A stretch of DNA of 63,924 nucleotides, the filler included, from Eremomyces bilateralis CBS 781.70 (Eukaryota): the NCBI GenBank assembly GCA_010015585.1. It is 7 parts of 7 records of this genome, joined end to end, with 100 filler letters (N's around TTAATTAATTAA, not from the genome) between each part and the next. Parts side by side here need not be neighbours in the genome. Positions count along the whole stretch, not along the records: positions 54,389 to 61,105 come from ML975191.1; 6 more parts are not named here. One strand, 5' to 3'. Under the pieces are notes generated by a model. That model saw only the letters and a program-made list of their open reading frames with translations. It did no database searches and was not told the origin of the DNA. Below are positions 207 through 62,879 of this stretch, one piece after another; position 1 is the first letter of the stretch; every line of letters starts with the position of its first letter. The position numbers and the translations under genes are program-made.

Positions 207-264
207 GGCAGATTGACCTCCGTTTTTGGAGGTTTGTGACGCCGTTTTTGGAGGTAAATCTGCC
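207..264. repeat. Imperfect inverted repeat enclosing a 14-bp direct repeat, upstream of the captain gene
   Basis: GGCAGATTGACCTCC (207-221) vs GGAGGTAAATCTGCC (250-264), 1 mismatch as an inverted pair; CCGTTTTTGGAGGT at 220-233 and 242-255. Confidence 0.75.
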
Positions 265-705
265 ATGCTCCAGCGCCAATGAGAACTCCCCTTACTCTCC
301 GACATGGATCTCGCTGACATGGATCTGAGCCATGCCCCACCAACTTGAGTCCCTGTCGGCCTGTCCTTTTTTAGCTCCGCTCTGACCTAGAGCATGCGGC
401 GTCCAGTTTTCAGTATTTCGTTTTCCAACTCTGCTTTCTTTTGCTCATCCTCTGGCGTCTAAAGGGCCAGAAGAAGGGCCAGAAATGGCCCTCCAACAGA
501 GTCCGCGACGTTTACTTAAAATGGCGTCGCCCTCTTTCTCTTCGCGTTCTTCGAATCGTTGTCTTCTATTCTCCCTACTGTGTTTACTACACAACCTCAG
601 ACTATTGTTTGCTCTAAAGATCTTGCATCTCTTCCCTTTCGTTCTCGCATACGCCTTCGCCTCTCCGGCACTTTCACCGGCGTTGGAGCCTGCGAATAGG
701 ACTCC

Positions 706-3136
706 ATGCGTCGCCGTACCGTGGACGATTCCTGGTCTGATGGAGACAGTACCAGCTCGCAATCGGACGACTCGTCGACATACCGAACGAATCTGAACGA
801 TACGCCGGATACATCAGGCTGTGACTCGGACGCAGACCTTAACAGGGAGTCAGCATGGCTACTCGAAGGCAATGAGCATCCACCAGAGTACTACAACCAG
901 CTGCTGGATAACTTTGACGACTCGGAGTATACCAAGGAGGATTATAGCGATGGCACTACCGTCCTCCTCGACCGAAGCGAAGCGCAGTGGAACCAGTAAG
1001 TAGCATGACCTTCTCTTCTATATTGCTATTTCTCTGACGCTGGATAGATACTGTGCCTATACCGGAAAAGACCCCAAGAAGATGTACCAGGCCATATCAA
1101 TCAACGTATTGCACAACTTTTTCCACTGGCTGCTCAGCCAGCGCCGCGGGAAGGAGGGACGGCGACTTCGAGGGACCAAACTGGCCAGTTCTTTGGGCAC
1201 ATACTGGAAAATCTATCGGCTTACGTACGAGCGAGCCACTGGCGATAAGATCAACGGTCCGACGACGCGTGGGATGCATAAGGTATGAAAACTCGTGCCG
1301 TAGTATCAACGGTCCATTTTAACGCTGTCTTTCAGGTGCTGCGAAAGCTGGCGAAGAGACACGGATTGAAAAAGGGAGCCAGGGAAAAGCCGTGCATGTA
1401 TGTCGAGGATCTGAAAGAAGCGCTACGGACAAATTTGTGCGCAGTTGAAAAAAAATACTCACATGGGAGAATCCGGATTGGGGTGCAGCTTTTCATGCAA
1501 ATTGGGGGCTTTACGGCTAATCGTCCTGGGGCATTACTTAACCTCTGCTACCGACATATTAGAGTCACATTGCTGCGAGACCCCGAAGGTGGGCCGAATC
1601 GGATTCTCCTTGAATTTTCATTCGAGTTTACAAAGAGCTTCCTTGGTATCAAGGACATGTACGTTAAATTTCCTTACATTTCCTCCCTTACAGCTACTCT
1701 TCCTTTTATACATCCTACTTACTAGTACACAGAAACACATTTCCGATCCCAGAGATCATATATGATCCGTCTTTAATCTACAGCCCGCACGTGCTCCTGC
1801 TAGGTCTGATTTTCGACGATCAAGCTTTCGCAGCACCAAGCCTTACCTCTCCGGATCAGCTCAGCATGCTGGATATCGAGCCAGGCCAGAACCAACTACT
1901 ATTACCGCTACGATCTGACCTAGACGATGTTCCGATTTTCCGCAAAGCTATTAAAACGCCAGAAGGATGGGAGATATCAAAGGACGAGCCTCTAGAGTAC
2001 TCTACCATCCGGTATGCGATGAAGAGAGTCGGCGAGCTCACTGGGTTCAAGTTGCTTCTGCGCCCATACGCACTCCGATATGGTGCTGGAAAAGCTTTCA
2101 ACGAAAACGGTATGTGGCCTACCCTTATGCTCTATTTGGCTGATGCGAGTGGTGTTCTTCTGTAGGCAACGTCAGCGAGGCGCTCCAAAACCTGATGATG
2201 CAGCACGGTGATCCGCGGACGTTCTTAAAACACTACCTCCATCGACGAGTAACAGTAGATGCGGCTGCAATTGTGCGGCGAGTCCAGCCCCAAGACGCAG
2301 TCATGCAAGCTGCTTGTAACATGAGCCGATGGATTGACCCGAATCGACCCTGGGGCCTTACCGCAGAGCAGGCAGACTCGGTGAACCAAACCCCTCTTAT
2401 TCGTTCCCTTCTGCAGGATCGGGACAGACTGAAGCGCCGCTACAGTCCGAAGCATATTAAGTACATTGAACACAATAAGAGGATTATAAGTGAAAAGCAA
2501 CGCCTTCGGGCATCACTTCTTGCAGATATTCAAGAGAAGTATGAGAAGGAAGGCCCAGTACGAGCGATTGAGCAGCAGCTGTCGGGCGTGAAGATCAGTC
2601 AAAAGCCAATAGTTGCGTCCTATTTCACGACCAAGACTCTTCCCGAACAGAAGCGATTGATCGAGGCGCTCATACTTGCCCCACCAGGGAACACTCTCGA
2701 GGAGGAGTTCCGGCGGCGGAACGAGGCCATCATCGCCGTTACAGAGTACTGCAAAATCGAAGAAGGCGATACACCCAAAAGCCAAACGCGGCCTCGAGGC
2801 CAAATGAAGCGCCTGTCGATCAAAAATGAGGATGAAGACCGATCAGCAGCGCCCGTTAAGCTAATAGAGAAAGAAATAGAGGCCGCTATGCTATCGGTCT
2901 TTAAAGATAAGCGACCGACGATATGTTTTCTTTGTCTTGGTAACGTCGCTTTACCGCTTGCTATACGAGTCTATTCCTTTAGCACTTCCTCTGATCTTGG
3001 CAAGCACTTTCGGCGGAAACACCTGTCTAATATTACGGACGGCGAGAGGATTGACTGCAGGGTTTGCAAGATGTCACTCAGCTGCAAGATGCACTTGCAA
3101 AGCCACGCGAAGAAGATACATGGGACGGTGTCGTGA
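706..3136 (+). CDS. DUF3435 tyrosine recombinase (Starship captain-like) with C-terminal C2H2-type Zn motifs; 5 exons (706-995, 1048-1282, 1336-1658, 1733-2109, 2166-3136)
   Basis: Four GT..AG introns join the track ORFs in frame (Q|YCAYTGKDP, K|VLRKLAK, I|NTFPIPEIIYDP, G|NVSEALQNLMMQH). Family-typical motifs HPPEYY, FTANRPGALL, RPYALRYGAG, MMQH..RTFLKHY (R..R..H..Y catalytic set) and C-terminal CFLC...HFRRKH / CRVC...HAKKIH. Confidence 0.9.
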
Positions 3137-5303
3137 ACTTCGATACTGAGTTATCGAATCTTGGTACGCTGGTTGAAGCGGCCGCGTTACGATTGAGGAA
3201 CAGTCATTTCTTTGTCACTGTTGGGTCCGATTCGAAGTATATTCGCGACTTTGCAGCTAGTCTCTTATTTACGTTTCTAATGACAGTAAGGTTCATCTGG
3301 TGTACGAAATCCTTTGATCAAGGGAATCTACATGCGAGACGTGATTGGATTCGAAAGGTGTGATAGAGTCAGAGAGATGGTAGCTTCTGTAGCGACAAGG
3401 TTTGGGGAAAATCTACTTTAAAGTGAGCCGTTAAGGATGTCTACGAAGTCACATAACTTGATGAAGCCGGTAGCTCCATTAGAAACAATTCGGAGATAAT
3501 TCCCAGCTAACCAGAGATAACTCTCCATAATTTATAGAATAGGGTTGTACTACTGCGCTATTGTGCTAAGTTACTGTAAGGAAATAGTGGCGTAGATGAG
3601 AGATTATGGTGATATCATCCTCGTTCGTACTATTGATGGAAACTGTTCCAGACATCACTGCCACCCTACCCTGTAATTCCGACTCCTGCAGTGCTTCTCC
3701 TATGAGGATGTTTTTGACATATACCCAAGGTTGCCACTTAAACGACCAAACACAAGGGAACCGCATTCGCACCAAACATATCAAGATGTCTTTATCAACC
3801 ACCATGCCCATCACAAGCATGTCCTAACCGAAAATATATGCGCTGATACTATCGGGTGAGACCAGAAATGGATTCAGGGCGGCAGTTCACACGGACTCCG
3901 GGGTGTCTGAAAAGTGAAAACGGATACGTTTGATTCCGGGTGGGGCCAGAAATGGACTACTCAAGGGAATTGCAAGGGCCTATTGCCGAAACTTTTTAGA
4001 TCCCCTTCCGGCTCCCAGAACTAGGGAATCTTGTTTAATGATGTTTTGGGACAAAATCTGTACCCAACAGCAAGCAAGGAAACACAGTCTACATGACTGA
4101 TATTGGCCTGATCCGTGTTATTATGCGCCGCTACCCCGTCGGCACAAGCGCAGTACTGTTGCAACTCCAGGCAGGGCCAAGGTAATCCTCTGCCGCTCCC
4201 CGGCAACGCAAGAAATTCGCTAACCAGTCTCCCGCAAACACAGCTTCAACCTCGTCTACTTCGAGCGGAACGAGAAGCTCTGTGTTCTTCCCAGTTCTAG
4301 TACCCGAATTTAGCAGGCAGCTCATTCACCATCGCTACGTTTGCGAGCGATTTAAAAGAGACGGACACTTACTTCGTCATACGCCATGATAGTGCCTGCT
4401 ACCGCTATCAGCTCGACTATGAAGCAAGAAAAGACTATGGCCATAGAGTGCCTCGAGAGGAGCTCTCGAAGTTGAAACCCCCGACAACCTCATTAATCAC
4501 TCCAGTGCAGTAGAAAGGATTCAGTCTGTTAGCTTGGCGTCCTCTCGTCTAAAAGAGAAGAGCCGGGCGCTTTCGTATACCAAATCCATCACTCTCAAAA
4601 CCCCGCCGTTGCTCTGTTTGATTGCGTTGGTTGACAACTCTGCCCAGCCAGCCTCTGGCCGTTGGTCCTCTACAACACGGTCCGTCGCATAAGACGCCTT
4701 TACCTAATTACAAACCTGGCTGATCGGCATTTCTATCTAGAAAGAGCCTGGTACCCGTCATGCTTCTATAAAATGCTCATCAAATCTCTAAACTCCGACA
4801 ATTCCAGCGGTAAGTTGCCGGCCTCGCTTCAATGCCTTAGCGATAACGGATACGGCTACGGGAAGTGGCCACGGCAAAGGGCCTGCTTTCAATACAGTAA
4901 GATGGTTTTCTAATAAATTTATGCCAGTTCCCGCCGCTCGCCGAAAAATGCATTTCCTATTTCGGAGTTACCAGCCTCAGTGTATAAACGGATCACCTCA
5001 CCGCTACTGCGCCCTCCCTTTCGCTAGGCGACGGAATTGGTCATTCTAGAGATATGTGCCGATATTTCAAATTAATAGAACAAACGGAGCAACGCACAAT
5101 CCCGTTTTTCACTCTGCTTCCGTTCAACACTTTTGGAGGCTAGGCACGAATCTAGCTTGTAACCCCATGATATAAAGGTCACCTGCTGGAAGGAAGAAAA
5201 ATTGTCATGGCGTAAATAGGAGCTTTCATGATTCTTAGCCGTTGACCTAATCGGCCTCGTTTTTCCTGATCAGTTTCTACATTTGATTTTCAATCACCTC
5301 AAT

Positions 5304-13864: not shown

Positions 13865-13964
13865 NNNNNNNNNNNNNNNNNNNNNNNNNNNNNNNNNNNN
13901 NNNNNNNNTTAATTAATTAANNNNNNNNNNNNNNNNNNNNNNNNNNNNNNNNNNNNNNNNNNNN
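13865..13964. other. Artificial assembly spacer (N44-TTAATTAATTAA-N44); same spacer at 26773-26872, 39556-39655, 54289-54388, 61106-61205, 62780-62879
   Basis: Six identical 100-nt N blocks with a six-frame stop linker. Confidence 0.97.
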
Positions 13965-26772: not shown

Positions 26773-26872
26773 NNNNNNNNNNNNNNNNNNNNNNNNNNNN
26801 NNNNNNNNNNNNNNNNTTAATTAATTAANNNNNNNNNNNNNNNNNNNNNNNNNNNNNNNNNNNNNNNNNNNN

Positions 26873-29800
26873 AATACAAGAAAGTATGCTGATCTTTTTG
26901 TAACAGTGTGCTGGCGGTATCTACAAGCAAGGAGAGCTGCATCGAGATATTCATCCCAAGAGCTAACCTTCTTGCCCATGCACATCTTTGTCAAAATCGA
27001 ACCAAGTGTTCCATTGAGGCGCTCCACCTTGCCATTGGTTCGTGGATGGTAAGGCGTTGCAAGCTTATGACGCGTCTTCAAGATTCGGAGGAGATGTTCA
27101 ACCACATTCGAGATGAATTGGCTGCCATTGTCTGACGTAAGGGCTGAAGGGGCGCCAAACGTAAGCAGGATTTCCTTGTACAAAAACTCTGCGATCTCAG
27201 GAGCCGTTGCATCAGGAACTGCTTTGGCGATTGGCCATCCAGTCGCATAGTCAATGGCAGTAATGATCCATCGGTTTCCGCGATTCGTCTCCGGAAGGAT
27301 ACCGATAAGATCAATTCCCCATTCTTCAAATGGCTGTCTAGGTTGAACACGATGAAATCGGGCTTCATTTTCCTTACTTTGGCGCTTGGACTGCGCTAGT
27401 TGACATTCAGGGCAATCTGAAGCCACGTTTTCAATGTCCTTCTGCATACTCGGCCACCACCCTTTTGTTTCGACCACGCCGTACAAGGCCGGCCAAGCAA
27501 AGTGGCCATAGTCGCGGTGGACCTTGCGCAATGAGTCTCGGCGAGTCGGTGGGGGCCAGTATGGCACCCAAGGGGCGTCCTTGTGGTCGTCAATTCGGCG
27601 TTCAAGGAGGTCATCCTTTGGCGCGATGCGGAATCTTGAAAGCTCTCTCAGCTTGAGTAGCTTGTTGCGCCGGACACGCTTGTCATCGGGAAGTATTCCG
27701 GTAAGCAACCATGTTCTGATGGCTTGAATACACTTCTCTTCAAAGCTCATTTCTTCAATAACGTTCAGCGCATACGGGTTACGGAAATTCTGCGCTTGAT
27801 TGGCGGGAACGTCTTCCATAAAGTCTGGGCGTCGAGAGAGTGCATCTGGCACAGTTGCTTCGGTACCTTTCCGATATTGTAGGTCGAGGTTATACTGCTG
27901 ATATTCTCCAATCCAGCGGGCCAACCTCTTCGTTAGGTGAGACATAGTCTGCAAGTACTTCAGGCTCTCATGATCCGTGAGGATCGTCGTCTTGTCTTTG
28001 TCAAGGATGTACTTGTTCCATGTCTTCAAGGCGTGGGTAATCGCCAGCAGTTCTTTTTCATGGACAGGGTAGTTGAGTTCAGCGGCGCCCAACTTTCGTC
28101 CTTCAAAAGCAACTGGGTGAAATACGCCATTGTCATCATCTTGGTATAAGGCTCCACCAATGGCCCACTCTGAAGCGTCAGTTTCGATGGTGAAGGGCTT
28201 GTGGAAGTTTGGCTGAATAAGGACGGGGTTCGAAGTCAGGCAGTCCTTGAGTTCGTTAAACGCCGCTTGGCAGGACAATGTCCAGCGGATTTGTCGGAAC
28301 TTGTCCTTCCTGCGGGCCTGATCTTTTTCCTTCAGCAACTCATGTAGCGGGGCTGCAATCTTAGCGAATCCCTTCACGAAACGACGGTAATATGCGGCAA
28401 GACCAAGGAATTGGCGCACATCGTGTACGGTTCTAGGTGTTGGCCACTCTCGAATGACGTCAACCTTCTTCTGCTGGGGGCGAACGATGCCTTTTTCGAT
28501 GACATGGCCACAAAAGTCGATGCTTTCGGCTGCGATTGAGCATTTCGAGGGCTGTGCATACAGCTCCTGGTCAGCCAAAGCTTTGAGTACGGCTTCTATG
28601 TGTTGTTCATGTTCTTCCAGTGTCTTGGAGTAGATGATGATGTCGTCTAGGTAAACCAACGCGAAACGGTTCAAGAACGGTCGCAGTGTATCATTCATCA
28701 GATGCTGGAACGTCGACGGGGCGTTGGTGAGGCCGAACGGCATCACAATGAACTCGTACTTGCCATGCAGAGTATTGAAAGCAGTCTTCGCTTGATCAGC
28801 AGGATCAATCAGGAGTTGCCAGAATCCTGAAGTCAGATCGATTTTCGTAAAGACGGTTGCTTCGTTCATGGCTTCCAGACACTCATCGATACGCGGCAGC
28901 GGATAAGTGTTGCGAGTAGTGAACGCATTTAGAGCCCGGTAGTCGACACACATTCGCCATTTCCCACCCGGTTTAGGCACGAACAATACGGGGCTTCCCC
29001 ATTCGCTGATAGATTCTCGGATCAGTCCACGCTCAATTAGGGCTCGAACTTGTTTCAGCTGTTCCTCGATGTGTACGGGAGGAAGGGAGTAGTGTGGCTT
29101 GTTGACAGGTTTAGCATCTCCTGTAGGAATCTTGTGGTCAAACTTCCTCTGTGGGGGAAGGTGATCAGGGAGACTGTCGCGAAAGACATGTCGATATCGC
29201 TCAAGTATCTCTTGGATGCGAGCATTCGTAGTCTTCGGTAGGAGGTCGGTATCGGTAGCGTCTCCTTTGATTTCCGCTTGAGTCTCGTTCTTTAAGATAT
29301 ACAAGCGACCTTGTTCGTCTGGGCACTCTCTTTCCCAACATTTTCGGAACGATCGATATGGCATCAGGTTGATTTTACAAGGAGTTTCATCATCGCTAAG
29401 GTCGACGACTGATGAATCGCCTTGTAGAACATGAGTCCAAGCCTTGGAATGAGTGCTGCTCACTCGTTGTTTAATGACCAACTTGGATAGGGGCCAATCG
29501 ATTGCTGGATTGTGTTGTCGAAGCCATTCGATTCCGAGGATTACGTCGTAGTCGTCCATATCAAGAACTCTGAAGGTACGTGTCTCTCGGAAAGAACCAA
29601 TCTTATAGGGGACTCGAATGCCTTTCGTGCTTGTCATCTCTTGACCATTAGGTAGGCGTACTCGTCGAGAGGGTAGGTTAGAGACAAGGTATTGAGGAGA
29701 CTTCTTGTAAAATCTATGCCAGAGCTTCTGGGATATATAGCATCGACCAGCACCACAGTCTAACATGAATTGAACTTTGGTAGAGTGGTTGGTTTCTGGT

Positions 29801-39555: not shown

Positions 39556-39809
39556 NNNNNNNNNNNNNNNNNNNNNNNNNNNNNNNNNNNNNNNNNNNNT
39601 TAATTAATTAANNNNNNNNNNNNNNNNNNNNNNNNNNNNNNNNNNNNNNNNNNNNGAGCGAAGACGGCGCTTCCCAAGAGACATGGATAAGTCATCCATA
39701 TTAAGAAAGAAGTTGCAACATATTGATATGCTTTGTATCTCTTAGAGCTCAAATCCTCTAGTTGGAGCATGTTGGGTAAACAAAAGTCGCGACTGCTGGG
39801 CATTCATTC

Positions 39810-54288: not shown

Positions 54289-54512
54289 NNNNNNNNNNNN
54301 NNNNNNNNNNNNNNNNNNNNNNNNNNNNNNNNTTAATTAATTAANNNNNNNNNNNNNNNNNNNNNNNNNNNNNNNNNNNNNNNNNNNNGATATTATCAAT
54401 ATATACCGCTTGACTCGTCCACTACTCGTCTATTACTCGTGACCATCTCGCTCTATGCCCACAACCATCTCGTGACCTTACATTCTGATCCTTCCTTAAG
54501 GGCTAGACCGTT

Positions 54513-55727
54513 ATGGCACAAACCGGCTCCCGCACGAATACCCCAGGGTCCCATTTAGATGGAGAACCCGCGGTACACGCAAATCCTCCCCTCCCGACAA
54601 TTGAAGATGTCGGCGAGGATGATAATGCGGAGCAGGAAGACGAAGCGACTCCTAGCGAGCGCATAAGTGAGTCACTGGGTGATCCTCAGCAGGACAACCC
54701 GATAGCACCACGAGTCAATAAGACTCCTATCACTGCCGAAGACCACGTTCTTTATCCCGCAGAAGCCTTAAACGGCGAACTATTTAAGCAGCTGATGGAG
54801 AGTAACAGACAGCTATCCGCCGCTATGCAGGCTCTGACCGCCCGAGGGTCCGGCGGTGATTCGCAGGGTACTCACCTGTCGAGCTTCAACGCCAGAATGC
54901 CGTCGGCCCAGGCGAAGGAATACCATGGGAAGTCCATCATAGAACACTTCTCATGGACCCTCGACTGCGAAAACTACTTCGCTATGAACCGAGCGTTCTT
55001 CGAGTCGTAGGAGAATTGTATCCGGTGGGCTGCACGAGGCCTGACTGGCAACCCAGAGTCCCTCTGGCAAATAAAACAAGGGACCGTGTCGTGGGACACG
55101 TATACCTGGGAGGCGTTCAAGGAGTTCCTCCTCGAATGCCTGGGTAATCAACAGTACCGTGAGTACGACGTTGCGAACCGTTGGTTCACCACCCAACAAC
55201 ACGCCCAGGAGTCAGCCGCGAAGTATGACGCGCGCCTGAGGCAATTGGAGGCACATCTCCCGAACGCGGCAAGAGATCCTGCAATAGGACTCCTCCGCCT
55301 GTTCTCCGGTTTGTCGCAGGGTACTCGTGACGAGATCATGCGACAACCGAACAATCTCCCAAGAGATCGAGCATCGCTCATTACAATGGCGACGGCCATA
55401 GAGTTGGCAGACAAGCATGCCAACCCGACTCGTCCTTCGAGAAGCTCCAAACGGCCTCAGGACAGCTCGTCGCAACGAGAGGAGCTCAGCAAGACGCGAC
55501 GCCCTCCGCATGAGCGCCATCAGCCTACCGAACGAGTAGCAGGCGAGTCCCGCAGTGGACCCTCATCTTCTTCTAGTAAGACTTGCAATTGGTGCAAGGT
55601 CTTCGGGCATATCGAGAGCGAATGCCGGAAGAAAGCAAGCGGTCAATCACGACCCATTGCGAGTATCTCGAGGGATACTCGCCGCTGGCCAGGCCAGCAC
55701 CCAAAAGGGAAAGCGGCGAGGGACTAG
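54513..55727 (+). pseudogene. gag: gag with one in-frame TAG (55008-55010) and a CCHC knuckle
   Basis: Two in-frame ORFs separated by TAG; TWEAFKEFL, CNWCKVFGHIESEC. Confidence 0.88.
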
Positions 55728-58700
55728 CGCCCCCTTCGTCGCGAAACCCCTTCATTGGGCGCCAGTTTGAAGTTAAGGCAGACCTGCAGAGTACTCGCAC
55801 CAAGGGAACTCCCTACACGGTGGTATTCGACACAGGGAGTCCAATCAACTCTGTTAGCGATCAGCTAGTCAAACGACTCGGCCTTGAAACCCGCGAGAGC
55901 ACCCCGATACCGGGGCTCGTATGGGGCAATGGCGAAGCAGTCAAGTCAACCCGTGCATGTCGCCTGAAGCTGCGAATGACGGATGCCTGGGGCACACGGA
56001 AGACAGTCGTAGATGACTTCTTCGTCACTGACCAGACGACCGCGGGTACTCCGGTACTCGTCGGTATGCCAATGATGGGCAAGTACGACATCGTACTCCA
56101 TCCGGCAACTGCGGAATGGCGCTGGTCGGTTAGATTCGATCGGTTCGACATCGCAGATGGACCTAGAGCCAAGTCAGCGTTCTCATCTCAGCCAACAATC
56201 TATGCACTAGTCATGAAAGAGATGCCCGCAGCGGGAGAGCCCCCGGGTAGTCTTGGTGACACAGATCGCTGGATGGCTCAGTTCCCCTCAGTGTTCAACG
56301 CTCCAGAGGTGCCAGAACCATGTATCGGCGTCGAGCATGCCATTGATACCGAGGGCTCCGTACCATACGGCCCTATCTACAACCTCTCGCCTCGCGAATT
56401 AGAGGCGCTGAGAGATTACATTGCAAAGGCAATCGCCAAAGGGTGGATTATCCCATCTCAGAGTCCTGCGGGAGCTCCAATTCTCTTTGTTCCAAAGAAA
56501 GACGGTGGTCTCCGACTCTGTGTCGACTACCGTGGGGTTAACAAGGTTACTCGCAAGAACCGTCACCCACTCCCTCTGATCGGTGAGATCATGGACCGCC
56601 TGTCGGGCGCTAAACGGTTCTCGAAGGTAGATCTCCAAGATGCTTATCATCGGATCAAGATCAAGGCATCAGACCGCTGGAAGACTGCGTTTCGCACGCG
56701 ATACGGCCACTATGAGTACACAGTGATGCCTTTCGGGCTCACTAATGCCCCGGCGACGTTCCAGGCGCATATCAACTCCGCCCTAGCCGGGCTTGTAGAT
56801 ATCTGTTGCATCGTCTACCTTGACGACATCTTGATCTACTCCAACACGGAGGAAGACCACGCGCGGGACATCACCGCAGTGCTCGAGAGACTCGAACAGC
56901 ACCAGCTCTATGTAAAGCCGTCTAAATGTGCCTTCGACGTCAATCAAGTCGAATTCCTAGGGTTCATCGTATCGCTAGGGGGCATTACCATGGATCCTAG
57001 TCGAGTAGAGGCAGTCACCCAGTGGGAGACGCCACAGACCTTCCGTGATGTCCAAGTATTCCTCGGCTTCGCTAACTTCTATCGCCGTTTTATCGAAGGG
57101 TACTCGCGGATTACTCAGCCGCTGACGCACCTCATGAAAGGGATGGAACGAGGTCGGAAGTCCGGTGACATGGAATGGGGCAAGGAACAGCAGCAAGCTT
57201 TCGAGCAGCTCAAAGCCGCCTTCGTGAGTGCCCTAATACTCGTACACTACGACCCTGGGAAGAGGCTACGCCTCGAGACCGACGCGTCTGCCTTTGCACT
57301 CGGCGCTGTGATTTCTTAATTAATGGAGGATGCCAAGTGGCACCCCATTGCCTTCTGGTCACGCAAAATGGACGCCGCAGAGACGCGGTATGAAGTCCAC
57401 GACTAGGAGCTACTCGCTGTCGTGAAGTCAATGACTCACTGGCGACACTACCTCGATGGAGCGCAAGACCCATTCGAAGTCATTACCGACCATCAGAACC
57501 TTCTGGGTTTCCTTAGTACGAAGCGTCTGAATAGTAGACAGGCCCGATGGGCCCTACTGCTGGCGGAGTTTGACTTCATTATGAGGCACCGCCCAGGCAA
57601 GGAGAACGTTGCCGACCCACTCTCGAGACGCCCGGCACTCGCCCGCGAATCGGAGATTGAAGTGTCGTAACATCTCAACTCCTTGCTACCTACGCTGCTT
57701 AATAAGCTAGCAATTATGGACGAGCCGCACATGCCTGCCGCCGTCCATGAAGAGGACAAGAGAGTCATCGCCGCGATCAGGAATACCCTTGTACTCCAAA
57801 GTGAGTCGGAGTTTGAGTGGCCAAGACCCACGCTCTCCCGCAGGCAAGTTCAGGTCGCAGCCATGGGCACGACCGCCTACACTGAAGCACCAGAGTCCCT
57901 GCTCACAGTGATCCGAGAGCGACAGTTCAAGGACAAACAGGCAAAAGAGCAGCGAGAACGCTGCGAGTCACAAGAGAACATCAACCTTAACGACTCCGAG
58001 CCTACGTGGAAGCTCGACGACAAGGGGACACTCCTCCATCGTGGTCGATTCTACATCCCCAACGATCCTGCCCTACGTGCAGAGGTCTTGCGGATTTGTC
58101 ATGACGACCCACTGGCAGGCCATTTCGGCAGTCGCCGTACGAGTAGCCTGGTATCATCCCAGTACTCTTGGCCAGGCATGTCCCGTGACATCGAGGAATA
58201 TGTCTCTACTTGTCGGGCTTGCCAATTGTCAAAGTCAAAACGACACAAGCCATATGGAGAACTTCAGTCGCTCCCTGAGCCTTAACGCCCATGGCAAGAA
58301 GTGTCGATGGATTTCATCACTGGCGTCCCGCCATGCACTCTTAGAGGCATCGTCTATGATGCGATCCTTGTCATCGTTGACCGGTTCACCAAAATGGCAC
58401 TGTACATTCCGACCCGTAAAGACGTTGATGCCAGTGGCCTGGCAGATCTCTTTATCCGGCACGTCGTCGTAAACTACGGTATTCCCGAGGGAATCGTCTC
58501 TGATCGAGGCACCCTTTTCACCAGCCTGTTCTGGAGCGAGTTATGTAGTATTCTTCGGATACAACGCAAGCTCTCAACGTCGTTTCACCCACAGACTGAC
58601 GGGCAGACGGAGCGACAGAACCAGGTACTAGAGACGTATCTGCGAATCTACTGTGCAGCCGATCAGTCCGATTGGGCAGAAGTACTACCGTTGGCGCAGT

Positions 58701-59416
58701 ATTGCTACAATCGCTCAATCCATGCCACTACCAATATGTCGCCTATGGAGGCACTTATGGGGTACACGCCGGGATTACTGCTAGAAGAAGACAGTACCGA
58801 CGCGGCACGCATCGTCACTCATCCAGACTTGCCGGCGCGGCTAACGCAGCTGCGAAGACTGCAAACTTCACTGCCAGAAGCGTTGCGAAGAGCCAACGAG
58901 TCGCAGGCGAAGTACTACAATCGCGTCCACAAGCCGCGCAAGTTCAAGAAAGGAGATGAGGTGATGATTTCCACCAAGACGCTGAAGCTCAAGACTCCTT
59001 CGAGGAAGCTATCTCCCAAGTTCCTAGGCCCTCTTGTAGTCCGAGAACCAATCGGCTCACAGGCATATCGTCTATGGCTACCTCAAGGGTATCGCATCCA
59101 TGATGTTTTCCACGTCTCAAAGTTAGAACCTTTCGAGAAGCGTGATGGCCAGGTCCTCCCAAGTCCACCGGTACTCATCGACGACTCTGAGGAGTTTGAA
59201 GTCGAAGAAGTCAAGGGAAAAATGGTGAAACAAGGACAGACGTACTACAACGTCAAATGGAAAGGCTACGAAGGTCTCTATGAAGACTGGTGGGAACCAG
59301 CAGAGAGCCTAGAGCACGCACAAGATGCGATCGCTGCTTATGAGCAAGCGCATCCCGAGTCCCAAGCGACTCGCCCGCGACGCGGAAGAGGCCGACCGCC
59401 TAAGGGCTCGGTCTAG
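55700..59416 (+). pseudogene. pol: pol (PR-RT-RH-IN-chromodomain) with four in-frame stops (57317, 57404, 57668, 58283)
   Basis: FDTGS, LCVDYRG, VYLDD, ETDAS, HDDPLAGHFG..CRAC, SMDF..SDRG..TERQN, chromodomain EEFEVEEV..YNVKWKGY..WEP. Confidence 0.92.
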
Positions 59417-59572
59417 GGTCGATTCTATTTCCCCTTACACATCTATTTCACTCAAAGAGCACAAAGAGTTCGATTCAATGAAACGGAGACTGCATTGAAT
59501 GCGACGAACACAGCTACTCATGACATGAGGATCCTGTCACTACTCCATGATGAGTATCTGACGAGTTGCAAT

Positions 59573-60497
59573 CTACTCCTCCGCAGAAGACTCCTCGGTC
59601 TCAGCAGCGGCCGTACCGTTGGCCCTTTTCTTGGCCGCAGCGGGGGATGGACTATCATCCTCTTCTTCCCCAGACTCAGATTCGGAGCCAGGGCTCTCTG
59701 AGCCAGCGGATCGAGCCACGTCCAGCTCAACGGACGAGGGGATAGCCGCGATAGACTACATTGCAATCAGCAGGATACTCGCAAACGGGCATCTCCAGGA
59801 TCACTCACCAATTCCCGATAAGCGGCAAACGCCACGGCCACACCAGCGATGGTGCGGAGTGATTTTGCGATGTCCTCGAGGATAGCTACACTAGCAGCTG
59901 AGGAAGCGCTAGAGACAGTAGAACTACTCGACCCCGACCCGCCAGCAGCTCGCGCGCCACTCTTCGGTGCCGCCTTGCGGAGCGCTCGCACGACCTGTTC
60001 CTGGAGATCCTCCAGCTCACTTTGTCGCGCGTGGAGCTCGAGGTCGTCGACAGGAAGACGCTCAAGGCTTGCGCGAGGGTTAGCTGAGTACCAGGATACT
60101 CGCACACGACACCTACGCGATAAACTTCCGAGCAATTTGGAGAACCGCGTTGTTCAGTTGCACAGGGACCTGAGCATCGGAATTAGCACTATGTCCGACT
60201 TAGACATGGGTTGACTCTTACGAGTTGGCAATGAGCCCGCTTCAAAGTCTTGCAAGCGCTGCAGCTGTGCGCCAAAGTCGTCGGAATGTCGCAAGCGACT
60301 CCACTGGGAACCGTCTCGTCGCCGTAGAGTTCCGAGTGCTTCGTGTATGTCCGACCATTGCTAATTTTGTCGCAACAACCTCGACAAATCAAGACCTAGC
60401 GATAGTGAGTACTAGACTACTCGCAAGTGATGAACCAACTCACCAGACCCGCGCTATTGATGCGCAATCCGGAATTGAGTTTCTTCCTGGGAGACAT
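59573..60497 (-). CDS. Intact 5-exon antisense gene inside the retrotransposon, 240 aa, Cys-cluster/coiled-coil/acidic protein (exons 60497-60444, 60395-60222, 60169-60117, 60067-59809, 59755-59573)
   Basis: Four 48-53-nt introns (GTGAGT..TAG, GTAAGA..CAG, GTAGGT..AAG, GTGAGT..TAG) with CTCAC/CTAAT/CTAAC/CTGAT branch sites give one 723-nt open frame. TATAAA on the minus strand at 60681-60676. Confidence 0.8.
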
Positions 60498-61205
60498 CAC
60501 GAAATCGACGTAGGAAAGTCACTCAGAAAGCAAGTCGCATGCGAGTATGTGGCTATCCATGCATCAGTGCAGAAGACCTCAGAAGGCTATCACCAAAAGG
60601 AAACACAGAGAGGTGGGCGATGGTGAAGGTGGAGTGAAGGAAAGAAGCAAGATCAAAACAGCGGGAGATCTCCTCTTTATATCAGAGGCGAGATTTCAGG
60701 CAGATATGATCTCGATAAAGGCACTCTCCACTGACACGAGGGCGATGCCTAGGAGTACTTTCACTTCCACTTCACTATCACTTCACTTCACTTCAGTGTC
60801 ACTTCCCAGGCAACAAGGCGATTTATATACCCGCCTCCGATGAACACTCTTTCCCAATGCTTTTCCCCACGAAGGGTTTTTCTTGGGTTTTAGCGAGCTC
60901 ACTCGGACGGCCATACGGCATCATTGCCACACCACTGCTCTTTGGCTATCGCCAAACGAGTACCTTGCTATCAACGGGCGAGGGACCGCCCTTTTCAAGA
61001 GGGGAGGTAATGTGAGGATGGATCACGTGACCATCAGTCACAGGAGACTTGGAACGAGTCTTGACAGACTCGAGGACTGCACATGACCCCGCTACTGCTA
61101 AGTCANNNNNNNNNNNNNNNNNNNNNNNNNNNNNNNNNNNNNNNNNNNNTTAATTAATTAANNNNNNNNNNNNNNNNNNNNNNNNNNNNNNNNNNNNNNN
61201 NNNNN

Positions 61206-62779: not shown

Positions 62780-62879
62780 NNNNNNNNNNNNNNNNNNNNN
62801 NNNNNNNNNNNNNNNNNNNNNNNTTAATTAATTAANNNNNNNNNNNNNNNNNNNNNNNNNNNNNNNNNNNNNNNNNNNN

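Follow-up and report, generated by a model that had tools for sequence, protein, structure and literature searches.

The window analysed here is a stretch of 63,924 nt from the fungus Eremomyces bilateralis CBS 781.70 (Dothideomycetes, Eremomycetales), in which small scaffolds are chained by six linkers and adjacency across a linker is meaningless. One scaffold (54389-61105, 6717 nt) is occupied by a Ty3/gypsy retrotransposon, and in the interval from pol to the 3′ long terminal repeat (LTR) of this element lies, on the opposite strand, a gene with five exons and four introns for a protein of 240 amino acids (aa). We tentatively read this gene as an accessory open reading frame (ORF) borne by the element, of the pol-to-3′-LTR type that includes brtn of Boty and gene23 of Grande. 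A preliminary description of this DNA had proposed an intact intron-bearing antisense gene inside a Ty3 chromovirus, and this core of the proposal stood, while its assignment of the protein to the Zn2Cys6 family, its argument from intactness, its postulated regulator and its impression of novelty did not.

The gene is located on the minus strand, where the five exons form a stop-free coding sequence (CDS) of 723 nt that encodes 240 aa and ends with a TAG stop codon. Together with the leader and promoter, which are putative and were read directly from the sequence, its parts are:

60498-60835, minus strand: putative leader and promoter with upstream ORFs (uORFs), TATA motifs and a TTCAC array
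60444-60497, minus strand: exon 1, 18 codons, with the start codon ATG at 60497 and a basic MSPRKKL... N-terminus
60396-60443, minus strand: intron 1, 48 nt, GTGAGT..CTCAC..TAG, containing TGCGAGTAGTCTA
60222-60395, minus strand: exon 2, 58 codons, with a Cys/His-rich module
60170-60221, minus strand: intron 2, 52 nt, GTAAGA..CTAAT..CAG
60117-60169, minus strand: exon 3, 53 nt
60068-60116, minus strand: intron 3, 49 nt, GTAGGT..CTAAC..AAG, containing TGCGAGTATCCTG
59809-60067, minus strand: exon 4, with a coiled-coil-like helix, a Ser/Gly/Ala linker and a hydrophobic helix
59756-59808, minus strand: intron 4, 53 nt, GTGAGT..CTGAT..TAG, containing TGCGAGTATCCTG
59573-59755, minus strand: exon 5, 60 codons plus the TAG stop at 59575-59573, with an acidic Ser/Glu tail containing KKR

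The spliced protein is identical over its full length to the NCBI model P152DRAFT_477616, a hypothetical protein of E. bilateralis CBS 781.70, and a protein search with exon 2 returned one match, namely this 240-aa NCBI/UniRef entry at 100% identity. The gene model of the preliminary description (five exons, four GT..AG introns of 48-53 nt, 240 aa) was thereby reproduced, as were the TATA box (TATAAA at 60681-60676 on the minus strand, upstream of the gene) and the repeat array from 60760, the latter being a TTCAC tandem array with a period of 5 and 8.6 copies that ends at 60805. A second and better TATA motif, TATATAAA at 60829-60822, is absent from that description. The ATG at 60497 is the first in its frame, with an in-frame TGA 8 codons upstream. 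It is preceded by three short uORFs (ATG at 60564, 60560 and 60540; 3, 13 and 5 codons), all of which end before the main ATG and whose presence in the mRNA depends on which of the TATA motifs serves. None of the six plus-strand ORFs of the same spacer matches a Pfam family.

On this reading, a complete transcription unit would run opposite to the element between pol and the polypurine tract, with TATA elements, leader, five exons, four introns and stop, and would encode a lineage-restricted (orphan) protein of 240 aa. Introns of an antisense gene read CT..AC on the sense RNA and are not removed from it; not being splice sites on the sense genomic RNA, they could persist through retrotransposition. 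A four-intron structure within an element is accounted for because antisense introns remain unspliced in the sense RNA, and this logic, already part of the preliminary description, is sound on established knowledge.

A stop-free spliced frame is by itself unremarkable: with any GT..AG intron of 42-70 nt permitted, the real spacer gives frames of 280 aa (minus strand) and 380 aa (plus strand). The test against chance therefore hinges on intron quality. Strict and medium fungal intron rules (donor, branch, acceptor, 42-70 nt) were used, which were set after the introns had been seen, so that the resulting figures are somewhat inflated. In 500 dinucleotide shuffles of the spacer the best spliced ORF had at most 189 aa under the strict and at most 210 aa under the medium rules, and 0 of 500 reached 240 aa. 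The strict rules yield no candidate intron on the plus strand of the spacer and exactly four on its minus strand, the same four that the gene requires; 3 of 1000 dinucleotide shuffles had at least four. Natural windows of 1.6 kb, taken from the other scaffolds and from gag/pol, gave no case with at least 200 aa and at least three introns (0/130). Ab initio models with several introns, from other parts of the window, use introns of similar size, mostly 46-74 nt.

Codon usage points in the same direction. A codon log-odds table was derived from 16 long ORFs on the remaining scaffolds, whose status as genes is unverified. With it, the model frame scores +0.109 bits/codon, the other five frames -0.05 to -0.41 and the introns -0.44, and the model frame is the best one in all five exons; for scale, gag scores 0.117 and pol 0.150. 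The GC content is 50% in the introns and 58% in the exons, and the 3′ flank of the unit is AT-richer. By these measures the antisense unit is a genuine spliced gene for a protein, or was one until recently. The GC content at third codon positions (GC3), with 0.606 for the gene, 0.607 for gag and 0.604 for pol, was rejected as a marker of origin, since the range of 0.44-0.85 in 25 long ORFs on other scaffolds covers all three alike.

The preliminary description had also taken as evidence that the gene is still intact while gag/pol carries five stops. At the gag/pol rate (5/1686), 0.71 stops are expected in 240 codons and the probability of none is 0.49; when only codons one transition away from a stop are counted (148 in gag/pol vs 11 in the gene), 0.37 are expected and the probability of none is 0.69. 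With a probability of about 0.5-0.7, intactness carries no weight. The gene has no Trp codon, and plus-strand C-to-T changes could create minus-strand stops via TGG only.

The element that surrounds the gene consists of the following parts:

54389-54482, plus strand: 3′ end of the 5′ LTR, partial, ending in ..CCTTACA; the scaffold begins within the LTR (contig breaks, terminal inverted match)
54513-55727, plus strand: gag with Retrotrans_gag and a CCHC knuckle, natural stop TAG at 55725 and premature TAG at 55008 (Pfam, ORF reading)
55580-59416, plus strand: pol in the -1 frame, with protease, reverse transcriptase (RT), RNase H, integrase H2C2, rve, SH3_Tf2-1 and chromodomain (Pfam)
59417-61010, no strand assigned: spacer from the pol stop to the LTR start, 1594 nt, holding the antisense unit (direct reading)
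60997-61007, plus strand: polypurine tract AAGAGGGGAGG, followed by TAA, 3 nt before the TG of the LTR (direct reading)
61011-61105, plus strand: start of the 3′ LTR, TGTGAGG.., truncated at the scaffold end (direct reading)

In pol, Pfam domains occur in the order Asp_protease_2, RVT_1 (E 3.7e-37), RT_RNaseH_2, Integrase_H2C2 (3.6e-22), rve, SH3_Tf2-1 (1.1e-17) and Chromo (4.6e-9), the RT lying at 56489-56971 and the chromodomain at 59195-59347, and the gene is terminated by TAG at 59414-59416. Because gag and pol carry these domains, the chromodomain included, the element is assigned to the Ty3 chromoviruses; by the order of the pol domains and the C-terminal position of the chromodomain it is a Ty3/gypsy chromovirus (Metaviridae). 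The layout given in the preliminary description, with the pol stop at 59416, about 1.6 kb of extra DNA and the polypurine tract and LTR near 61011, was recovered, as were its five premature stops, namely TAG 55008 in gag and TAA 57317, TAG 57404, TAA 57668 and TAA 58283 in pol. All five are TAA or TAG and none is TGA, frameshifts are absent from gag/pol, and the stops fit plus-strand C-to-T changes at the Gln codons CAA/CAG. The indices of repeat-induced point mutation are normal in element and spacer (TpA/ApT 0.77; (CpA+TpG)/(ApC+GpT) 1.06).

The LTR ends CCTTACA and TGTGAGG match as inverted sequences in 6 of 7 letters. The LTR pieces in the scaffold (94 nt at the 5′ side and 95 nt at the 3′ side) are non-overlapping, and an LTR direct repeat is not demonstrable inside the scaffold. 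The adjacency of polypurine tract and TG alone is weak support, because three of the five plus-strand purine runs of at least 10 nt in the 6.7-kb scaffold have a TG within 6 nt downstream. In run X1, short contigs of high word depth cover 54389-54485, and three of them diverge after 54482 or 54485. At the other end, a 499-nt high-depth contig matches 61050-61079 and differs before 61050, for which reason the first 39 nt of the 3′ LTR (from 61011) are not shown to be repeated; since this high-copy contig matches the window from 61050 onwards only, the 3′ boundary at 61011 is plausible, short of proven. The short contigs at the LTR ends have word depths of 227-3694 vs 55.6 for the single internal contig of 6477 nt, which places the whole LTR or a part of it in a repeat that is much more abundant and more variable than the internal region. 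The internal region assembles as one unbranched contig. The 6477-nt contig, produced by a different assembler, spans 54603-61079 with 0 differences, an interval that reaches from gag across the gene to within the start of the LTR, and due to this identity it is no artefact of a single assembly that pol, gene, polypurine tract and LTR start adjoin. Run X1 is probably the source of the window itself, so that the second contig is not an independent sample. The run is DNA-like, with about 30 Mb of contigs, and the contig across the antisense gene is unspliced.

The encoded protein has a mass of 24.9 kDa, a pI of 5.7, no Trp, 37 Ala and 34 Ser. Its residues 1-21 are basic (SPRKKL), and residues 22-74 contain C22, C25, C26, H38, C53, H61, C63, C66, H73 and C74, giving the spacing C22-x2-C25-x27-C53-x9-C63-x2-C66-x7-C74 with C26 as an extra Cys. 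Helices are predicted with low confidence at 79-96 and 102-126, the second being the charged stretch ELHARQSELEDLQEQVVRAL. A Ser/Gly/Ala linker (residues 127-147) is followed by a hydrophobic helix (residues 148-183; Kyte-Doolittle value 1.61, borderline) and by an acidic Ser/Glu tail with KKR (residues 184-240). All protein features listed in the preliminary description (SPRKKL, Cys spacing, helix, Ser-rich linker, acidic tail with KKR) were found. The Cys/His-rich module is predicted to be able to hold one or two zinc ions, and from the layout of the protein one may reasonably guess, and no more, that it is a nuclear factor that binds zinc, associates with itself and acts on nucleic acid or chromatin.

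The preliminary description went further and saw in it a divergent fungal Zn2Cys6 (Gal4-type) factor serving as LTR transactivator, which we consider very improbable. Zn2Cys6 clusters have the spacing C-x2-C-x6-C-x5-12-C-x2-C-x6-8-C. The stretch C53-x9-C63-x2-C66-x7-C74 fits the second half of this spacing, CSACKTLKRAHC is similar to the basic C-x2-C-K/R-rich stretch that these clusters have, and the order of Cys module, coiled coil and acidic tail mimics Gal4; like the proteins of PF00172, the present one has at least six Cys in its N-terminal part and, after them, a coiled-coil-like helix and an acidic tail. In contrast to them, it has additional His residues and a seventh Cys, and its first loop counts 27 residues where theirs has 6. 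Pfam hmmscan with the full protein at E≤10 gave four chance-level families, among them neither Zn_clus (PF00172) nor DUF3716, and exon 2 alone gave 0 families. The sequence search of the PDB returned low-complexity chance matches (best E = 0.035, to a transit-peptide/transmembrane stretch) and no zinc-cluster protein. The AlphaFold check proposed in the preliminary description yielded a single-sequence AlphaFold2 model with a predicted local distance difference test (pLDDT) score of 43.7 and a predicted template modeling (pTM) score of 0.28, which is unusable and too poor for a fold search. An Atlas model has a pLDDT of 0.52, and its structural neighbours reach template modeling (TM) scores of about 0.5 or less and indicate no family. 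The Atlas feature neighbours from the language model, at 0.90-0.92, are unnamed Ascomycota clusters, none listed with Zn_clus, and a neighbour at 0.81 is a cluster with DUF3716 in 28% of its members; both serve as leads only.

The introns of the gene share sequence among themselves. Introns 3 and 4 have an exact 13-mer, TGCGAGTATCCTG, in common, which within the window is confined to them, and a variant of it with 3 differing letters, TGCGAGTAGTCTA, is present in intron 1. The positions of these cores are:

59771-59783, minus strand: core of intron 4
60092-60104, minus strand: core of intron 3
60413-60425, minus strand: core of intron 1

Because the chance of a shared 13-mer between two sequences of 50 nt is about 2e-5 by our own estimate, introns 1, 3 and 4 appear to be related or under a common constraint, and the core suggests intron copying or a shared intronic signal. 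The start-to-start spacings of the cores are exactly 321 and 321 nt. A tandem unit of 321 nt was considered and rejected, as the identity at lag 321 lies about 2-2.7 standard deviations above the mean and is explained by the intron cores. Introner-like elements of Dothideomycetes, as far as the available text of PMC4457414 describes them, are introns of one genome that share sequence, a pattern pointing to the gain of introns by copying. Introns 1, 3 and 4 resemble them in this respect; unlike introner-like elements, they are ordinary introns of 48-53 nt with a shared core of 13-21 nt and no copies outside the gene in the window. Introner-like elements are near-identical introns at many unrelated positions of a genome; at the scale of the window, the 13-mer was found in introns 3 and 4 alone.

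An antisense gene named brtn, carried by the retrotransposon Boty in Botrytis and Sclerotinia, was reportedly described by Zhao et al. 2011, Virology 417:248. According to the parts of the literature at hand, brtn is an extra gene on the opposite strand of a Ty3/gypsy chromodomain element of Botrytis/Sclerotinia (PMC8365987, PMC7264820, PMC4227169), and a figure legend of a review draws it between pol and the 3′ LTR (PMC7264820). The impression of the preliminary description that fungi offer no such case was too strong, having overlooked Boty brtn (PMC8365987, PMC7264820). Compared by description only, both are opposite-strand genes between pol and the 3′ LTR of Ty3/gypsy chromodomain elements of fungi (Pezizomycotina), whereas brtn belongs to a multi-copy family in two species and the present gene was seen once. 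The absence of brtn from protein searches says little, because brtn is missing from the latest B05.10 annotation (PMC8365987, available text).

In plants, antisense ORFs designated aORF-3R occupy the same interval between pol and the 3′ LTR; the available text of the review PMC7264820 names maize Grande gene23, rice RIRE2, Silene Retand and Phaseolus PvRetro13, and reports for such ORFs an own promoter (Grande), no similarity to known proteins, nuclear location in some cases and a proposed regulatory role. The CDS at 60497-59573 (minus strand) lies between 59416 and 60997 and thus has the aORF-3R placement, and position, orientation and the lack of similarity to known proteins are shared. The plant lineages are, by contrast, not chromoviruses, and conservation of the ORF extends to most copies of each family (PMC7264820, same parts). 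A further difference is that the word 'intron' has 0 occurrences in the review PMC7264820, whereas the present gene has four. It is by its four introns that the present gene stands out.

HBZ of human T-cell leukemia virus type 1 (HTLV-1) has a spliced isoform and is a bZIP protein. Partial text of PMC11963269 describes it as an antisense retroviral gene with a nuclear product. It resembles the putative factor proposed here in being an antisense-encoded nuclear factor with a dimerising helix and a spliced antisense transcript of a retroelement; it differs in belonging to an animal retrovirus, in having its promoter in the 3′ LTR and in its bZIP domain, and there is no sequence relation.

The structure of the gene, its coding character and its location within the element are established; its expression, its carriage by the element family and all that concerns function are inferred. 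The preferred reading, an accessory ORF borne by the element, draws on the spliced model and its identity with the public one, on the shuffle, codon and composition results, on the location between the Pfam domains and the polypurine tract, on the match in position and orientation with the antisense ORFs of plant Ty3/gypsy families and of Boty in the portions of PMC7264820 at hand, and on the lack of a donor locus, as the protein stands in a 90% cluster with one member on one contig and has no paralogue at E≤0.001. A number of findings weigh against it. In an exhaustive HMMER search of 1.84 billion cluster representatives at E≤0.001 the protein matches itself alone, and pattern scans of viral contigs and of metagenome contigs revealed no relative of it. 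The element is likewise isolated: its best integrase relatives have at most 52% identity, its best RT relatives at most 64% within the RT core and, across most of the query, about 45-52%, and none of the 120 listed matches of either search (integrase or RT) that carry a source name comes from the same species. When 87 related Ty3 loci (670 kb; integrase identity 33-46%) were searched with the protein by tblastn, nothing better than E = 1.5 was obtained. Of the related loci, 23 had sufficient flank, and LTR pairs could be placed in 19 of them, with distances from pol to LTR, to be taken as upper bounds, of 0-2144 nt and two doubtful larger values. Since the related loci range from 0 to about 2.1 kb, long spacers between pol and LTR are not rare, and the ten longest contain no comparable antisense multi-intron gene, their best spliced ORFs being chance-like or of low complexity. 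There is no sign of conservation of the gene among the relatives within reach, and with no relative in the representatives, the viral and metagenome scans or the 87 Ty3 loci, the retrotransposon-encoded regulator of the preliminary description is unsupported. The one copy within reach has a dead gag/pol, with its five premature stops, and carriage by an active family is at most presumed. Further points on this side are the lack of a family match in Pfam and of a zinc-cluster protein in the PDB, the unusable AlphaFold2 model, the intron rules of the shuffle test chosen post hoc, the three leader uORFs, which could limit translation, LTR pieces of about 95 nt each with a 3′ boundary resting on the polypurine tract and the 6/7 inverted match, and the 499-nt contig that departs from the window before 61050.

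Among the relatives, three metagenome loci (L020, L028 and L078; 37-41% integrase identity) have about 1.9-2.1 kb from the pol stop to the aligned start of the 3′ LTR, and low-complexity or chance-like ORFs alone were found in their spacers. Titles among the listed literature matches that name Eremomyces bilateralis contain no transposon context.

The same single copy could have arisen as a one-off passenger, that is, a host or foreign orphan gene captured, promoter and introns included, through recombination, a nested insertion or read-through transduction, without a role in the element, and now behaving as an ordinary single-copy host gene inside a dead retrotransposon. We consider this unlikely, though worth serious attention. 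According to the accessible portion of PMC7264820, the copy number of transduced genes is one or a few, and one copy is seen here; the internal part of the element forms one unbranched contig with no second annotated protein, its relatives are without the gene, the GC3 of the gene lies within the range of the 25 long ORFs on other scaffolds, and the gene is annotated as an ordinary hypothetical protein. Yet a donor or paralogue is lacking at E≤0.001, so that the match to a normal host locus contemplated in the preliminary description was not found, and around the spacer neither terminal inverted repeats nor flanking direct repeats of a convincing kind were seen that would bound the segment or betray a nested transposon. 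Furthermore, the unit fits between the pol stop and the polypurine tract, the typical place of family-borne antisense ORFs in the part of PMC7264820 available. More ambitious than the element-borne ORF is the proposal of an integral accessory gene of a Dothideomycete chromovirus lineage that travels with the element thanks to introns invisible on the sense RNA, that encodes a zinc-binding nuclear regulator of element transcription or silencing and whose introns multiplied within the element by copying, as suggested by the core common to introns 1, 3 and 4; we regard it as improbable. If true, it would mean that a retrotransposon both carries and breeds spliceosomal introns.

It also seems improbable, a little more so, that the introns are or formerly were real and the locus is a fossil or non-coding unit, either an untranslated spliced antisense transcript or a dead gene, with any effect on the element exerted via antisense RNA (double-stranded RNA or small RNA) and not via the protein. 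The orphan status and low complexity of the protein (37 Ala and 34 Ser of 240), its low-confidence fold, the three uORFs before the start codon and the dead state of the host element would all agree with this, and antisense RNA regulation is raised as an alternative for such ORFs in the text of PMC7264820 to hand. On the other hand, an open frame of 240 codons across four junctions is improbable without recent constraint, with an estimated probability of about 2e-4 for one frame from base composition, and each of the five exons has its best codon log-odds in the model frame. The prospect that the gene is flanking host DNA beside a 3′-truncated element, with 61011-61105 belonging elsewhere, is the most remote of all. 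Such an artefact of assembly or boundary would agree with the mere 95 nt of 3′ LTR, the bounding of the scaffold by repeats, the difference of the high-copy contig before 61050 and the lack of a demonstrable LTR direct repeat inside the scaffold. It is opposed by two assemblies that agree on the continuity of pol, gene and LTR start, by the polypurine tract abutting TG and by the inverted match of the LTR termini in 6 of 7 letters.

Some further observations concern the element and the window as a whole. A near-perfect palindrome of 26 nt, TGCGAGTATCTCGAGGGATACTCGCC, is located at 55658-55683 within the gag/pol overlap of 148 nt (55580-55727) and is a possible candidate for a frameshift-stimulating hairpin; no slippery heptamer is obvious just upstream of it. 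The 8-mer TGCGAGTA occurs 9 times in the window vs 1.5 expected (largest count in shuffles 6), with 7 of the 9 occurrences within the 6.7-kb element, and an inverted copy lies in the leader of the antisense gene at 60540-60547 (plus-strand coordinates) within the near-palindrome ACTCGCATGCGA. On another scaffold and on the opposite strand, 60 nt at 28705-28764 are 81.7% identical to the RT region of the element at 56705-56764 and are identified as a trace of another retroelement. The window contains no tRNA genes for a check of the primer-binding site, and the element scaffold has no match in Rfam. The six linkers, each consisting of 44 N, TTAATTAATTAA and 44 N, carry stops in all six frames through TTAATTAATTAA and are located at:

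13865-13964: linker
26773-26872: linker
39556-39655: linker
54289-54388: linker
61106-61205: linker
62780-62879: linker

With one dead copy and an orphan protein as its basis, the case has the value of a lead rather than of a demonstrated system. Antisense extra genes of LTR retrotransposons are widespread and their functions are unknown, as stated in the available text of PMC7264820, and fungi are easier to manipulate than the plants that hold most cases. A fungal case with four introns would make a useful test of how such a gene survives an RNA-mediated life cycle, and of whether genes of this kind act through a protein or through antisense RNA. The core common to three of its introns touches, moreover, on the question of how new introns originate in Dothideomycetes.

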